Shown: positions 13,418 through 64,000 of the stretch, piece by piece
Layout: every line of letters starts with the position of its first letter
Numbering within the stretch: the stretch's first letter is position 1
NCBI GenBank assembly: GCA_019746225.1
Contig: JAIESE010000011.1
Span: forward strand, 7 to 64,006
Direction of reading: 5' to 3'
Length of the DNA: 64,000 nt
Source: Alphaproteobacteria bacterium
GTDB taxonomy: Bacteria > Pseudomonadota > Alphaproteobacteria > Paracaedibacterales > VGCI01
Notes under the pieces: model-generated
Seen by the model: only the letters and a program-made list of their open reading frames with translations
What the model was told of the DNA's origin: nothing
Databases searched by the model: none
Translations under genes and position numbers: made by a program

Positions 13418-14302
13418 ATGCGTAAAATTTATTATTTAGTCCTAACCTTGATGGCAATTTCGTCTTCATTCGTATCCTCTAGTATGGCCATGGAGGATGT
13501 GCAAGAAGATGAATCTGCATTGCAACCTCCCCCGAAAAAGCGGGCCCATTATTGGCATAGTCAAATTGATGATAACGAAGCCATAGGTGATGAGGATGAT
13601 ATTGACGAGAGCAGTTTATTTACTGACGAGGAAGAGGATAAAGATATAAGTAATTTATGTATGTCCATATCTGACGGGGAAGGCGAAGAGGATCATTATA
13701 GCTCATATGAGGTAAAGAAACGGATTGATAGTTCATCAGAAGAGCAGCCTGTGACTTACTCATTCGTTCCTACAGATGATTTAACTCCTGAAGAGACGAA
13801 TTTTTTTCAAGGGAAGATCCGGTTTCTAACCCGTAAAAATAGAATCTTATACATGTCAATTATTCATCACGCATTTAAATTCTTACCAAAAGACTACATG
13901 CACTCTAAAGAAAAAGCTCCCGTCTTAACAAACTTGTGCGCGATTCTTGGTGGCTATGAGTACTTTTCATCAACCTCTCAAGATACAGCTACCTACCGCA
14001 ATTACAATGCTAAACAAGAAAAACAGTTTTTAAAAAGGATCGCTTCAATTGTTCTTGAGTCTAACTCTGAGGTAGACTTTTTGAGCAGGATAAGTTTTGT
14101 CCACAATCATTTCAATCGTTTAAGCCACCAAGGACCTGTTAATCGTAGTAAAGTGGAGTATTATACTTTTACGAGTGAAAAGGCTAAAAGATTTAATTAT
14201 AAAATCAATCAAGACCTCATTCGTAAAACCTTGAAGTATGGAATATACCCAACAAATTGGAATGTTCTTGTTGAGAAGCATCTTCAAATCATGTTCTCAT
14301 AA
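13418..14302 (+). CDS. orphan secreted protein with acidic N-terminal region (hypothetical)
   Basis: 294 aa. AAAGGA SD. Leader MRKIYYLVLTLMAISSSFVSSSMA|MEDV. A highly acidic stretch (DEDDIDESSLFTDEEEDKD...GEGEED) contains PPPKKRAHY. It is AT-rich and opposite in orientation to the flanking ftsA and ftsZ. Confidence 0.7.
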   Translation: MRKIYYLVLTLMAISSSFVSSSMAMEDVQEDESALQPPPKKRAHYWHSQIDDNEAIGDEDDIDESSLFTDEEEDKDISNLCMSISDGEGEEDHYSSYEVKKRIDSSSEEQPVTYSFVPTDDLTPEETNFFQGKIRFLTRKNRILYMSIIHHAFKFLPKDYMHSKEKAPVLTNLCAILGGYEYFSSTSQDTATYRNYNAKQEKQFLKRIASIVLESNSEVDFLSRISFVHNHFNRLSHQGPVNRSKVEYYTFTSEKAKRFNYKINQDLIRKTLKYGIYPTNWNVLVEKHLQIMFS

Positions 14303-14353
14303 ATAAAAATTAAAGGGATATATCCCTTATCAGACTTTGCCAAAAAAAGAACA

Positions 14354-14389
14354 GGGGGACAGGTTTCAAAAAACCTACCCCCCCTTTTT
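14354..14389. terminator. hairpin terminator between orphan gene (+) and ftsA (-)
   Basis: A-run, then stem ggggg-ac-aggtt / aacct-a-ccccc (one bulge), followed by cctttttg. Confidence 0.6.
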
Positions 14390-60624: not shown

Positions 60625-62427
60625 TCAATCACACACAATCCCGTTGGCCTTCGCATACTCAAGCAATTGGGGTCGAATGCTTGGCTGTGCAGGGATACAA
60701 ACATCATTCACAAAATCCGAAACCTCAATGTGGGTCATGCTTCGAATCATGTTTTTAACAAGCGGCACAGAAGCCGCGGACATAGATAAGGTTTGATACC
60801 CAAGACCAATGAGGGCCAAAGCTTCCAAAGGTCGGCCAGCCATTTCCCCACAGATGCTCAACGGGATTTGGGCGGCTTCACACTGATTTTGAATCAACTT
60901 CAAGAAGCTTAAAAATGTGGGCGACAACACGTCGTACTGTGCAGACATTTTGGGGTGCTCTCGATCAATGCCATAAAAAAATTGTAACAAATCATTACTG
61001 CCAACAGATAAGAAATCTACATGCGGAAACAACTGTGACAACTGGCAAACAAGGGAAGGTACTTCAATCATCGCGCCCAATCGAATGGATGTTGGAATCG
61101 GCTTTCCTTTATCACTCTCTTGCGCCATTTCATCTTCAAGGACATCTCGTGCGGCTTTAATTTGGCTCACCTCAGCAACCATTGGCAACATCAGCGTAAG
61201 CTCGCGGCCGGCACTGGCCCGAATGAGGGCTCTCAACTGATGTCTGAGCAAAGTTGGGCGATCAAGAATTGCGGCTGTTGTTCTCTTGACCATACTTGGG
61301 TTTTCAGATTTGACACGTTCGAGGTAGGGTAATACTTTATCCCCTCCAACATCCAAAGTTCGAAAAACAACAGGGTAAGTGCCGCTGCGATTTAAAATTT
61401 CTCGATACAACTTTGTCTGCTCTGCAACATTAGGGAGTTTGGGTTGCATCATAAAAGGAATTTCGGTTCGATAGAGACCCACCCCTTCGGCACCTGCCGC
61501 CTCAATGTAATCAACATCTTCCACCAAGCCAGCATTTAACTGCAAAGAAATCGAAACGCCATCCAAAGTGCAGGCGAACAAGCCGGCCATGGTTTCGCCC
61601 TGTAAATCACGGGTGCGCTGCTTATTTCTCAAGGTTTTTGTATCATATCGACGCAAAATCTCTTCGGGGGGACGAATAAATACGTACCCCTCATTTCCAT
61701 CCACAAGAATTGAATCCCCTGGATTTATTTCACACAAAAAATCCTTCATACCACCTACAACAGGAATCTCTAAGGATCGAGCCACAATGGCGACATGAGA
61801 CGTCTGGGATTGTTCTACAAGAAGGAGTCCCGCAAGGCGTTCTCGGTCATATTCCAACAACTCAGCAGGCCCTATGCGGTCAGCCACAAGAATCATTGGG
61901 TAATCCCACTTGCCGCGCTCAAAACTCTTCGTGCTCCCTGTCAAATATCGCTTTAAGCGAAAAGAAAGATCTTCAAAATCAATAATCCGAGCATGCCACA
62001 GAGACTGCTTTCCCTTCTTGGTGAATTTCTCTTGGATTGACTCCATCGTCCGATCAACCGCATCTAAAGCCGACAATCCATCTTGCACTTTTTCTCGCAG
62101 TTGACGCTGCCAACCTGGGTCATTGGCAAGGAGTAAGTAGACATCCAGGATTTCGCGTGATTCAACTTCAAATTGGATTGGGGACATCGAAATCGATTGC
62201 CTAAATATAAGAGACTGAATTTCATCAGTTAAATGTGTCAAAGCGCGTTCCAGACGAAACAATTCTTTTTCTTTAGATTTTCCTTTGAATTCATGCCGAT
62301 CCGCTGGATTCTTCGCTCCTTCAGAATGATGGATGACCGCCCGGCCTAAACCAACACCTGTATTGAGGCTGATCCCCTCCACTTCATGGGGGAGTGAGAC
62401 CCACTTTTCAGCGCTATTGTCTGTCAT
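60625..62427 (-). CDS. ptsP: phosphoenolpyruvate--protein phosphotransferase (PTS enzyme I; no GAF domain)
   Basis: 600 aa. AGGGAG SD. Phospho-His region SQTSHVAIVARSLEIPVV. PEP-utilizer TIM barrel (GLYRTEIPFM, FLSVGSNDLLQF). The N-terminus starts directly with the EI N-domain. Confidence 0.88.
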   Translation of the reverse strand: MTDNSAEKWVSLPHEVEGISLNTGVGLGRAVIHHSEGAKNPADRHEFKGKSKEKELFRLERALTHLTDEIQSLIFRQSISMSPIQFEVESREILDVYLLLANDPGWQRQLREKVQDGLSALDAVDRTMESIQEKFTKKGKQSLWHARIIDFEDLSFRLKRYLTGSTKSFERGKWDYPMILVADRIGPAELLEYDRERLAGLLLVEQSQTSHVAIVARSLEIPVVGGMKDFLCEINPGDSILVDGNEGYVFIRPPEEILRRYDTKTLRNKQRTRDLQGETMAGLFACTLDGVSISLQLNAGLVEDVDYIEAAGAEGVGLYRTEIPFMMQPKLPNVAEQTKLYREILNRSGTYPVVFRTLDVGGDKVLPYLERVKSENPSMVKRTTAAILDRPTLLRHQLRALIRASAGRELTLMLPMVAEVSQIKAARDVLEDEMAQESDKGKPIPTSIRLGAMIEVPSLVCQLSQLFPHVDFLSVGSNDLLQFFYGIDREHPKMSAQYDVLSPTFLSFLKLIQNQCEAAQIPLSICGEMAGRPLEALALIGLGYQTLSMSAASVPLVKNMIRSMTHIEVSDFVNDVCIPAQPSIRPQLLEYAKANGIVCD

Positions 62428-62634
62428 TTATGACTCCCTTGAACGAGGTGCCACGACCTTTGCCTTTGTTTCCCTGCCTGTCGGACTCAAGTTCATATTC
62501 ACTTTACCATAAATTTTAACAAATCTTGAGCAATTCTTTAAGATATGCTCTAAGAATCCTTGTAACACGATTGGTTGATTCCTATATAACAACTATAAAG
62601 GTTATTTGTATTGAGTTAAATGATGGAGGTAAAA

Positions 62635-64000
62635 TTGATCAAATTCGCAATGCTTCTTTCCTGTCTCCTTGTCTCAACCTGGACCTTCGCGATGGATGAC
62701 ACAAATCAAAATCCTGGATTCGCCCCCCCCTCTCCTGTACATTCAACTGCTTTAGAAACAGATATATTCAATGATTTTATTAACAATATCTTTGCCGTGG
62801 AACCTGACTGGGAACGCGCTAATACCTTTGTTAAGGAGAATGATTGGAAAGTTCTAGACATGATTGAATTATCTATCAGAGGTGTTAAAGAACAAATTGT
62901 TCTTCGACTTTCCTGGATGATGGATGCGGACACCTCTTTCATTGAGAAATATCCAGATATTTGTAGTTTTATCCTCCTGTTCAATTATGGTGACGAGGAG
63001 GGACGCAGTCAGCAGGTGATAAAGACAGCCATTGAGAGAAGCAAAACAACAAGCCCAATCCAAATGCTGGCTTGCCTCCATTACCAATTCACCTTTGAAT
63101 CCTGCTCTGAAGACCAAGTAAGTTCATTGCGTCAACTGGCTTTAACACATCCTTATGCACAGAAAAATATGGGGTTGATAGAAGTTACACATAAAATGAC
63201 TTGGTTACAAAAAGCTGCATCAGTAGGACTCCGGAAAGCACAAGCTCAATTGGCTACGTGCTACCAGCAGCAAAACAACTTATCAGAAGCAATTGAAATC
63301 TGGCACTCTCTCCTCTCATTCAAAATTCCACACCCTGAATTGATGAATGGCTGGTTTGATGATGAACCTGAAATGTTGACTTATGAAGTGCAGGATGGAG
63401 TACGCCTCAAGATGGGGTCTATTCTGACAAAAACAACCATCGTCACGTCTGTTTCTTCCACAACCCAAGAGGATTTGGTAAAGAAGCTATTTAAACAAGT
63501 TGAGCCTGCGCTTGGCTTTCTTCTTGAGGAAAGTGTTAAAAACAGCCACTCTCTCGGCTCAAGTGCCATGCAAGACCTTGGCCCCACGATTCCCTGCTAT
63601 GTCGAGCCATTCCGACAAGTTACCGACTACTTATCGAAGACCCTCCTCTTGTTGGAAGCGTTTAATAGTTCTGGATTTATGGTGACGTGCTTACAATCAT
63701 CCGTTCCTTTGATTCCACGTCAAGACAATGCCTCTCCGTTTGTAAAGAGTTACCGCGTTGAGTATAAAGGAAACTTCCTCGACTATCTCTCATTCGGAAA
63801 GCGAAATATTGATTTTGCTGATTTTTTGATGGATGCTGTATCTCGCCAATCGGGGTATGAGCTGTTCATCAAACGCGTGGTGATGATATATACAGACTAT
63901 GATGAACTTCTCACAAACTTTCGAAGGAAATCTTTAGAGATCCAAAAGACTTGGTCTGTCACCCAGAGTGACGATGACCTAGGGCTGATCACGCGCTACG
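62635..64000 (+). CDS. orphan secreted Sel1-like-repeat protein (3' end off window)
   Basis: Absent from the ORF track because there is no stop in the window. By manual translation the frame is open from 62620 to 64000. GGAGG lies 5 nt before the TTG at 62635. Leader MIKFAMLLSCLLVSTWTFA|MDDT. WLQKAASVGLRKAQAQLATCYQQQNNLSEAIEIW fits the Sel1-like repeat consensus. Confidence 0.7.
   Translation, partial: MIKFAMLLSCLLVSTWTFAMDDTNQNPGFAPPSPVHSTALETDIFNDFINNIFAVEPDWERANTFVKENDWKVLDMIELSIRGVKEQIVLRLSWMMDADTSFIEKYPDICSFILLFNYGDEEGRSQQVIKTAIERSKTTSPIQMLACLHYQFTFESCSEDQVSSLRQLALTHPYAQKNMGLIEVTHKMTWLQKAASVGLRKAQAQLATCYQQQNNLSEAIEIWHSLLSFKIPHPELMNGWFDDEPEMLTYEVQDGVRLKMGSILTKTTIVTSVSSTTQEDLVKKLFKQVEPALGFLLEESVKNSHSLGSSAMQDLGPTIPCYVEPFRQVTDYLSKTLLLLEAFNSSGFMVTCLQSSVPLIPRQDNASPFVKSYRVEYKGNFLDYLSFGKRNIDFADFLMDAVSRQSGYELFIKRVVMIYTDYDELLTNFRRKSLEIQKTWSVTQSDDDLGLITRY

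Follow-up and report, generated by a model that had tools for sequence, protein, structure and literature searches.

The route by which intracellular alphaproteobacteria pass their Sec-exported proteins on to the host is an unsettled question. The DNA analysed here, a stretch of 64,000 nucleotides from contig JAIESE010000011.1 of an uncultured alphaproteobacterium (the window, to which all coordinates refer unless another contig is named), gives that question a particular form: why should unrelated proteins with export leaders carry a Met followed by Asp, Glu or Gln exactly where the leader would be cut off? The initial annotation had pointed to six dispersed orphan genes (P1 to P6) whose products show this arrangement after a hydrophobic leader, and to a WH2 protein with a Met at the equivalent position. 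Translation and a regular-expression search of the window located all six junctions with every coordinate correct, and the WH2 protein also proved to have its Met as described. The features are as follows, with an arrow at the predicted cleavage bond and the predicted mature start given last.

13418-14302, plus strand: P1, a 294-residue orphan; leader 13418-13489 (MRKIYYLVLTLMAISSSFVSSSMA), ...SSSMA↓MEDV.
13490-13492, plus strand: junction Met codon of P1; mature start MEDVQEDE.
21284-22111, plus strand: P2, a 275-residue orphan; leader 21284-21346 (MNKHIAHIFSYTFLLASPLMA), ...SPLMA↓MEEP; Met codon 21347, mature start MEEPIDV.
25389-25955, minus strand: P3, a 188-residue orphan; leader 25955-25896 (MGKKLIGILMGFGLAKGSFG), ...GSFG↓MDDG; Met codon 25895-25893, mature start MDDGRRT.
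35872/35902-36843, plus strand: P4, a protein of predicted trypsin fold; leader ending at 35976 (...FLLSLITPQTVG), ...QTVG↓MEDF; Met codon 35977, mature start MEDFSLY.
36924-39047, minus strand: WH2/poly-proline protein of 707 residues; leader 39047-38970 (MNKFKISMLVATSLVTLILSENPSYS), ...PSYS↓MQRG; Met codon 38969-38967, mature start MQRGGRT.
43489-44637, plus strand: P5, a 382-residue orphan; leader 43489-43584 (MNHIPHINRRLFNVLVCLSFSMLFILSSSISG), ...SISG↓MDST; Met codon 43585, mature start MDSTEKR.
62620 to past the window end (64000), plus strand: P6; leader 62620-62691 (MMEVKLIKFAMLLSCLLVSTWTFA), ...WTFA↓MDDT; Met codon 62692, mature start MDDTNQN.

P4 has 313 residues when read from ATG 35902, and a TTG at 35872 would supply a basic n-region; P6 is complete on contig L008 (8282-9808, minus strand), where it has 508 residues. 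The label 'orphan' is borne out, as a Pfam search of P1-P6 found no domain and homologue searches with P1 and P2 against 5.8 billion proteins returned the query itself as the sole match. No meaningful match came from searching PDB sequences with P1, P2, P4 and P5, and none of ten further orphans scored over threshold in a Pfam search. The description of the six genes as AT-rich holds in part, with 37-45% GC compared with 46-50% in adjacent housekeeping genes.

A six-frame translation of the 64 kb contains nine matches to the pattern [AGS]M[DE][DES]. Six of them are the junctions, each sitting directly after a Sec-type leader at a real gene start, and the other three fall in non-coding frames. 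Eleven more junctions, from the window, from contigs past its ends and from loci around P4 homologues, bring the total to 17; the carriers lie in the window, in two patatin genes just outside it and in five related metagenomic lineages. The additional junctions are:

WH2 protein, window: SYS↓MQR.
Patatin 1, L008: VHS↓MQS.
Patatin 2, L008: GFA↓MQQ.
488-residue orphan, L097: SGA↓MEE.
1157-residue orphan, L097: THT↓MQG.
P2 orthologue, L011: LLG↓MDQ.
P4 orthologue, L096: VHA↓MDA.
1051-residue orphan, L099: IHS↓MES.
583-residue protein, L101: LYS↓MQS.
819-residue protein, L101: LYS↓MQQ.
411-residue orphan, L103: VSA↓MDD.

The motif as first written, [A/G]-M-[D/E]-[D/E/S], was too narrow: the third position is free, Gln is permitted at +2, and Ser (once Thr) occurs at -1. 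On these sequences the rule is better written [A/G/S]↓M-[D/E/Q], with the third residue unconstrained. Among the 17 junctions the +2 residue is Asp in six, Glu in five and Gln in six, with no Asn; position -1 holds Ala (7), Ser (5), Gly (4) or Thr (1), position -2 is usually bulky, and -3 is Ser, Thr, Val, Leu, Ile or Gly, all of which fit the -3/-1 rule of signal peptidase when judged by that rule. The cleavage bond was itself set by the -3/-1 rule, in part guided by the Met. A hydrophobic core is present in 17/17 leaders, and a basic residue (Lys or Arg) lies close to the start of most of them, in P4 only if it is read from TTG 35872. The DNA of the six original junctions always reads GNN-ATG-GAN (13487-13495, 21344-21352, 25890-25898, 35974-35982, 43582-43590 and 62689-62697). 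The resemblance to a strong eukaryotic Kozak context, with G at -3 and +4, is most simply a by-product of Ala or Gly at -1 and Asp or Glu at +2; a Kozak reading was rejected on this ground, and the Ser↓Met-Gln cases (TCT ATG CAA) also fall outside such a context.

Met stands at +1 in 17 of about 36 signal-peptide proteins of the clade, a hand-curated junction set (binomial P ~3e-19 at a Met frequency of 2.2%), and D, E or Q at +2 in 17/17 junctions (P ~2e-14). Collapsing orthologue and paralogue pairs leaves 13 independent families, for which P = 6e-14 for Met at +1 and 3e-11 for D/E/Q at +2. In controls, comprising 79 loci of other alphaproteobacteria (1.47 Mb, 1170 open reading frames), M-[D/E/Q/N] follows the leader in 0/156 crude leader-like N-termini. 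The crude automatic leader detector found the junction in 7/22 cases in the source genome, although it missed P2, P3 and the WH2 protein and one of its matches was false, lying inside a hydrophobic core. The junction is a highly non-random, lineage-specific feature.

The 19 leader-bearing proteins that lack the junction include an OXA-like protein, an outer-membrane-protein-like (OMP-like) protein, DUF294 and DUF1287 proteins, several orphans and P4 paralogues. Housekeeping exported proteins of the window are indeed without the Met, as had been observed: the OXA-like protein reads SHG↓AEG and the OMP-like protein AQA↓TPC, and the SCO and YcbK-like proteins likewise lack it. A two-residue junction rule thus separates two exported classes within the same genomes. 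Sequence comparison detected no similarity among the carriers of different families, and the motif was therefore not inherited from a single ancestor gene. What had been proposed as a family of co-exported effector candidates is accordingly not one family; it stands as a class defined by its tag. A shared mobile cassette of leader DNA was ruled out, as the leaders vary in sequence and length and the proteins are unrelated.

The junction persists where its surroundings change. P2 has a syntenic orthologue (L011 2629-3468, minus strand; 37% identity) that reads ...MVPLLG↓MDQPDNN; a 3-residue indel lies right behind the junction, and yet the two proteins both keep Met at +1, followed by an acidic residue. 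P4 shares 37% identity with its positional orthologue P0124 (L096, with sfsA upstream in both), which reads ...TFVHA↓MDAPDSL; the distance from the Met to the first conserved helix varies, and both proteins have [G/A]↓M-[E/D]. The two patatin paralogues are 44% identical from residue ~50-70 on, with N-termini that cannot be aligned, and both have [S/A]↓M-Q. In all three pairs Met is kept at +1 while the residues at -1, +2 and +3 and the spacing to the mature domain vary.

More distant homologues have leaders and no Met. The leader of the P2 homologue on L094 ends ...SSPLYS↓SSVDID, and 21 more distant P4 homologues continue after the leader with A↓GIF.D.E.L or A↓IIVE. By parsimony, the Met was gained after the leaders existed, independently in at least two families; because these distant P2 and P4 homologues have the leader without the Met, the residue is derived and convergent and no relic start codon. 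One untagged P4 homologue, P0127, is encoded on a same-sample contig, adjoining two tagged genes, and the comparison shows that a protein family can apparently shift from the untagged to the tagged class within one genome. A search of metagenome contigs with the P2 alignment added one partial homologue only, and single-nucleotide polymorphisms were uninformative on selection of the leader because the source organism's contigs differ so little between samples (99.9-100% identity). The sequences support the view that the junction is a selected feature common to otherwise unrelated exported proteins.

Translation takes in the leaders and starts at the upstream codon. Duplex energies with the anti-Shine-Dalgarno sequence average -6.6 kcal/mol at the 17 leader starts, compared with -5.6 kcal/mol at 30 housekeeping starts of the window, whereas the 17 internal ATGs average -1.6 kcal/mol, compared with -2.2 kcal/mol at 155 random in-frame internal ATGs (leader starts versus internal ATGs, P = 1e-5). 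These values weaken the second option of the initial annotation, a dual start. The upstream Shine-Dalgarno sequences had been called good, and are so at P1 (AAAGGA, -5.4 kcal/mol; internal ATG +0.6), P3 (GGAG, -6.4 kcal/mol; internal ATG -4.9, the least clear-cut case), P4 (AAGGAGG 6 nt before 35902, -12.8 kcal/mol; internal ATG +1.2), P5 (GGAGG, -10.0 kcal/mol; internal ATG +1.0) and the WH2 protein (-5.9 kcal/mol; internal ATG +0.4), but not at P2 or at the ATG of P6. The P2 site is weak, but its orthologue has TAGGAGG. At P6 the site before ATG 62620 is weak and GGAGG falls within codons 2-4, 5 nt before TTG 62635, which may be the true start and would give a leader of 19 residues, not 24. 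Leaders are kept in frame among P2 and its L011 and L094 homologues (MNK...PL..), those of the L101 paralogues are nearly identical, and homologues that lack the internal Met carry equivalent, alignable leaders. A promoter scan of about a third of the window returned no more sites than shuffled sequence did, and no sigma-70-like promoter was correctly placed upstream of the three internal ATGs scanned.

A structural prediction for P4 also bears on the junction. The AlphaFold model built with a 23-sequence alignment has a predicted local distance difference test score (pLDDT) of 92.3 (34 in a single-sequence run); it places the leader in a helix at residues 3-19, leaves the c-region at 20-25 as the sole low-confidence stretch, and begins the mature domain at residue 26, the Met. 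Of the two options raised for a shared processing or sorting signal, we favour signal peptidase cleavage because the -3/-1 rule is followed in 17/17 cases, the Met holds +1 across indels, and the P4 model has a linker at this position. The proposal of a shared signal survives as a selected, common junction, with the motif revised as above.

We propose that translation begins at the upstream start codon, that the Sec pathway exports the product through a conventional signal peptide, and that signal peptidase I cuts between the small residue (Ala, Gly or Ser) and the invariant Met, so that the exported protein would start with Met-Asp, Met-Glu or Met-Gln. This new N-terminus would be a clade-specific tag that sets one exported class apart from ordinary envelope proteins, namely fast-evolving, host-directed effector candidates: the WH2 protein, the two patatins, the trypsin-fold protease, a Sel1-like protein and orphans. 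The tag would be read after cleavage, its likeliest reader being envelope machinery that frees proteins from the periplasm toward the host, across the outer membrane or into vesicles; alternatively, the reader could be on the host side. We put the probability that signal peptidase I cleavage before the Met exposes a tag for host-directed proteins, read after export, at about one half; from the leaders and junctions we infer the cleavage bond, export itself and the sorting role. The further idea that Met-Asp/Glu/Gln is a new secondary export or delivery signal, read by a bacterial machine or by the host N-terminal acetyltransferase NatB, is more tentative, and we hold it to be somewhat short of an even chance. 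The clade is probably protist-associated.

Several points weigh against cleavage exposing such a tag. The sample is small (~82 kb of the source genome, 21 kb of L097, which comes from the same sample as the source and is probably the same genome, and ~78 kb of relatives), and that L097, L099, L101 and L103 belong to a single clade is assumed from a shared cassette and composition. P3 and patatin 1 have plausible alternative cleavage sites, GLA↓KGS in the case of P3. Four orphan signal-peptide proteins of the source genome, two in the window and two in flanking contig sequence, are untagged, and the tag therefore does not mark all candidate effectors. The loci examined contained no candidate reader or secretion system, and nothing that we know of accounts for a requirement for Met in particular in a sorting tag. 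What sets ATG apart from other codons is its role in translation initiation, a point in favour of a dual start.

Under such a dual start, ribosomes would also initiate at the internal ATG, either with no Shine-Dalgarno sequence to guide them or on leaderless mRNA transcribed from a promoter within the leader, and each gene would yield exported and cytosolic forms; Asp, Glu or Gln at position 2 would block methionine aminopeptidase and leave both forms with the same sequence. Only initiation obviously explains an ATG that is invariant in 17/17 junctions, and the retention of an initiator Met before Asp, Glu and Gln agrees with the established specificity of methionine aminopeptidase. Some gene callers did choose the internal ATG (602 versus 632 residues for P0003, 484 versus 508 on L009), and a published study describes pairs of N-terminal proteoforms in bacteria whose predicted localisations differ (PMC13515050). 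We nevertheless consider a dual start unlikely. The internal ATGs are as poor in Shine-Dalgarno sequence as random in-frame ATGs although the genome ordinarily uses such sequences, and the three that were scanned have no well-placed sigma-70-like promoter. A second start would work anywhere nearby, yet the Met always falls at +1 of the -3/-1 site, even across indels. If the Met only had to be retained, Lys, Arg, Leu, Ile or Asn would serve as well at +2, and none of these is seen. The neighbouring idea that initiation occurs at the internal Met alone, with untranslated leaders, likewise draws on the automatic gene calls that picked this ATG, but is contradicted by the strong Shine-Dalgarno sequences at upstream ATGs and their lack at internal ones, by leaders conserved in frame between orthologues and nearly identical in the L101 paralogues, by the equivalent, alignable leaders of Met-less homologues, and by the AlphaFold model, in which the P4 leader is a helix on a flexible linker; we regard such an annotation artefact as very improbable.

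The +2 residues can also be viewed from the host side. NatB acts on Met followed by Asp, Glu, Asn or Gln, and at the sequence level 17/17 junctions lie within this set, so the exposed end might imitate a eukaryotic cytosolic N-terminus and gain acetylation, or escape surveillance of protein fragments of the N-degron or inhibitor-of-apoptosis-protein (IAP) type. Five junctions start with MDD or MEE, as do the N-termini of beta- and gamma-actin, and the cargo includes a predicted actin-binding WH2 protein. Yeast NatB co-expressed in E. coli, and so removed from its native eukaryotic surroundings, is able to acetylate recombinant proteins (PMC6040700). Yet Asn, which NatB accepts, is at +2 in 0/17 junctions, the enzyme normally works on nascent chains at the ribosome, and literature searches gave no report of its acetylating translocated bacterial effectors; the idea also presupposes delivery to the host cytosol, itself unproven, and we rate it slightly below the dual start. 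That the Met has no function, being either a relic of an older start under an added leader or a by-product of composition, is improbable and largely refuted on the sequence comparisons. AT- or T-rich upstream DNA does readily encode hydrophobic peptides, the genes are young, fast-evolving orphans, and GNN-ATG-GAN follows automatically from Ala or Gly at -1 and Asp or Glu at +2. But the P2 and P4 families had a Met-less leader as their ancestral state, the Met having come later; it has since been retained between proteins of 37-44% identity although the residues around it differ; Met-Asp/Glu/Gln begins only about 2 of roughly 60 ordinary proteins of the window, compared with 17/17 junctions; and a dipeptide frequency of 0.4% per position cannot give 17/36.

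The closest known relatives are ordinary Sec signals, with which the leaders share the n-region, hydrophobic core, small residues at -3 and -1, acidic early mature region and Shine-Dalgarno start. No strong preference at +1 is known for ordinary signal peptides apart from the exclusion of Pro, and Met is rare there. Here, by contrast, +1 is invariably Met and +2 is Asp, Glu or Gln, in about half of the clade's exported proteins compared with 0/156 controls. The junctions have no lipobox for signal peptidase II, +1 being always Met with no Cys at or next to the junction. They also differ from type IV prepilin sites, as the hydrophobic segment precedes the cut and the residues after Met are polar or acidic. 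The twin-arginine translocation (Tat) motif S/T-R-R-x-F-L-K is missing from 16/17 leaders, P5 having a partial N-R-R-L-F; the YcbK-like protein of the window has a Tat-type SRRNFLK.

Among sorting signals, the processed end of Plasmodium export element (PEXEL) proteins is x-Glu/Gln/Asp and is acetylated. PEXEL, the RxLR-dEER motif of oomycetes and the diatom ASAFAP motif resemble the junction in placing a short motif that steers further translocation after a signal peptide, and the Glu, Gln and Asp found at PEXEL position 5 are the residues allowed at +2 here. They differ in being eukaryotic, with proteases and translocons of their own, and neither RxL nor Phe occurs at the junctions; the logic is alike, without homology. 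In ASAFAP, the +1 residue (Phe) after signal-peptide cleavage decides plastid import (PMC3774753). In bacteria, the lipoprotein export signal (LES), a short acidic signal behind the processed N-terminus, sorts Bacteroidota lipoproteins to the surface or vesicles (PMC5080379, PMC10319031), and by the +2 rule of E. coli lipoproteins Asp at +2 causes inner-membrane retention (PMC6469965). Both are, like the junction, very short, mostly acidic motifs directly after a processed residue, and LES is also phylum-specific and was first found as a sequence regularity. Both follow a lipidated Cys, however, whereas the proteins here are alphaproteobacterial and predicted to be soluble, and have Met first with neither Cys nor lipobox; the LES form Lys-(Asp/Glu)2 or Gln-Ala-(Asp/Glu)2 after a lipidated Cys is absent, and the phylum is another. 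The Sec-dependent putative effectors BspC and VceA of Brucella have functional Sec signals and leave the periplasm in a second step, being released with outer-membrane vesicles (PMC12794620, PMC3738490); they resemble the present proteins as putative effectors with Sec leaders, but have no Met at +1. N-terminal proteoform pairs are similar in that an in-frame ATG near the 5' end could yield a leaderless form (PMC13515050), and different in that the internal ATG of the present genes lacks a ribosome-binding signal and is tied in position to the cleavage site. The closest functional analogues are the lipoprotein signals, the eukaryotic motifs and the Brucella proteins; none of them has Met at +1, and none is homologous. 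We would class the junction as a new, apparently undescribed variant of sorting that depends on a Sec signal peptide; the initial annotation knew of no export motif of this form, and targeted literature searches found none.

Should the junction be a sorting or delivery signal, effectors of a lineage represented by metagenomes only could be listed from sequence alone, and a new outer-membrane step or a host N-terminal enzyme would be indicated as reader. It would be the first such signal known to us for soluble proteobacterial proteins, parallel to LES and PEXEL, and a two-residue rule would define the clade's entire effector repertoire.

The cargo of the tagged class fits a host-directed role, as the domains of three carriers (the WH2 protein with its poly-proline run and the two patatins) associate the tag with host-directed functions. 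The C-terminus of the WH2 protein (36924-37050) has nine Pro residues (PPPPPPPPP) followed by AALFGDIQKGKQLRKV, the poly-Pro-then-WH2 order seen in actin nucleation-promoting factors; the Pfam WH2 model (PF02205) scores 21.9 bits (E 1.3e-4) on the 707-residue protein, compared with a gathering cut-off of 23.1. Two patatin-like phospholipase genes flank a gene for a DUF294 protein at L008 2239-8269 (~1.0 to 8.2 kb past the window end). A search with a patatin returned one paralogue, then plant and generic bacterial patatins, with no orthologues; the closest non-self matches were Brassica patatins, 33% identical over a third of the length, which suggests an origin among eukaryote-like sequences. 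P6 gave a weak Sel1/TPR-like match (PDB 6deh, E 0.0017), and the remaining tagged proteins are orphans with polar, Pro-rich, acidic N-terminal regions. The WH2/poly-proline and patatin domains point to a probable eukaryotic target, and a Sec leader ahead of domains of this kind implies a two-step exit route from the cell.

P4 belongs to a family of 24 members recovered in a profile-free HMMER search. Foldseek matched its model to chymotrypsin-fold proteases with a probability of 1.0 (tPA, factor Xa and others), and the family keeps a His/Asp/Ser triad (LSCAH, ND(I/L)A, HDSGS). P4 itself has SSGS, with the Ser retained and the preceding Asp lost, and P0124 keeps CDSG together with MDA. On the model, P4 is predicted to be a secreted chymotrypsin-fold serine protease. 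The wider family conserves its mature N-terminus, GIF.D.E or IIVE, which is reminiscent of Ile16 in chymotrypsin-like proteases, the activation N-terminus whose partner is the Asp preceding the catalytic Ser. The window P4 has MED in place of GIF.D.E or IIVE, alongside the loss of this Asp.

A P4-like leader protein recurs in a cassette with a large, fast-evolving protein and an OMP-like protein of 250-266 residues. The large protein always carries a Met-Gln/Glu/Asp junction and has almost no sequence in common between loci; the OMP-like proteins, which have no Pfam match, are 33-41% identical between loci. Together the three genes could form a module dedicated to secretion or to the cell surface. 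The loci of the cassette are:

35872-39981: window.
10001-15402: L097.
6511-11758: L099.
9913-17431: L101.
2576-5692: L103.

The source organism is represented by a metagenome-assembled genome (MAG) with proteins prefixed K2Y18_ and by near-identical contigs in several JGI and Logan metagenomes. A search with FtsA among species-representative genomes found one close relative, L011 (a Lake Tanganyika MAG, 87%), and 79 others at <=50%, which served as the control loci; with such a gap, the lineage is isolated in current databases. Housekeeping genes of the window include the dcw cell-division cluster, ccm cytochrome c maturation genes, glyQS and ribosomal protein genes, and the orphans are inserted singly into conserved operons, not in islands. 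P1 is missing from the equivalent site of L011, where P2 is present, and a search of genome contigs with P5 gave no match. The insertion sites are:

P1: ftsZ/ftsA, on the opposite strand.
P2: murG/GNAT acetyltransferase-ftsW.
P3: mraY/murD, on the same strand as dcw.
P5: glyQ/ccmA.
45906-46880: ccmB/ccmC.

Some features nearby are of separate interest. A strong, GC-rich hairpin of 14 pairs with T-runs (14313-14384) lies between the convergent P1 and ftsA and looks like a bidirectional terminator shared by both, and a terminator-like site is found 3' of P2 at 22125-22148. The N-R-R-L-F of the P5 leader (43489-43584) is a partial twin-arginine-like motif in front of a hydrophobic stretch of ~20 residues, and this leader may be Tat-like or a signal anchor instead of a plain Sec leader. 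To the left of the window start, L091 1-9000 encodes a phage-type integrase and an RRM_1 RNA-binding protein, together with a cluster that may be a locus for peptide modification and export, made up of a 730-residue radical SAM protein, a 207-residue orphan with a leader, an ABC exporter and a methyltransferase.

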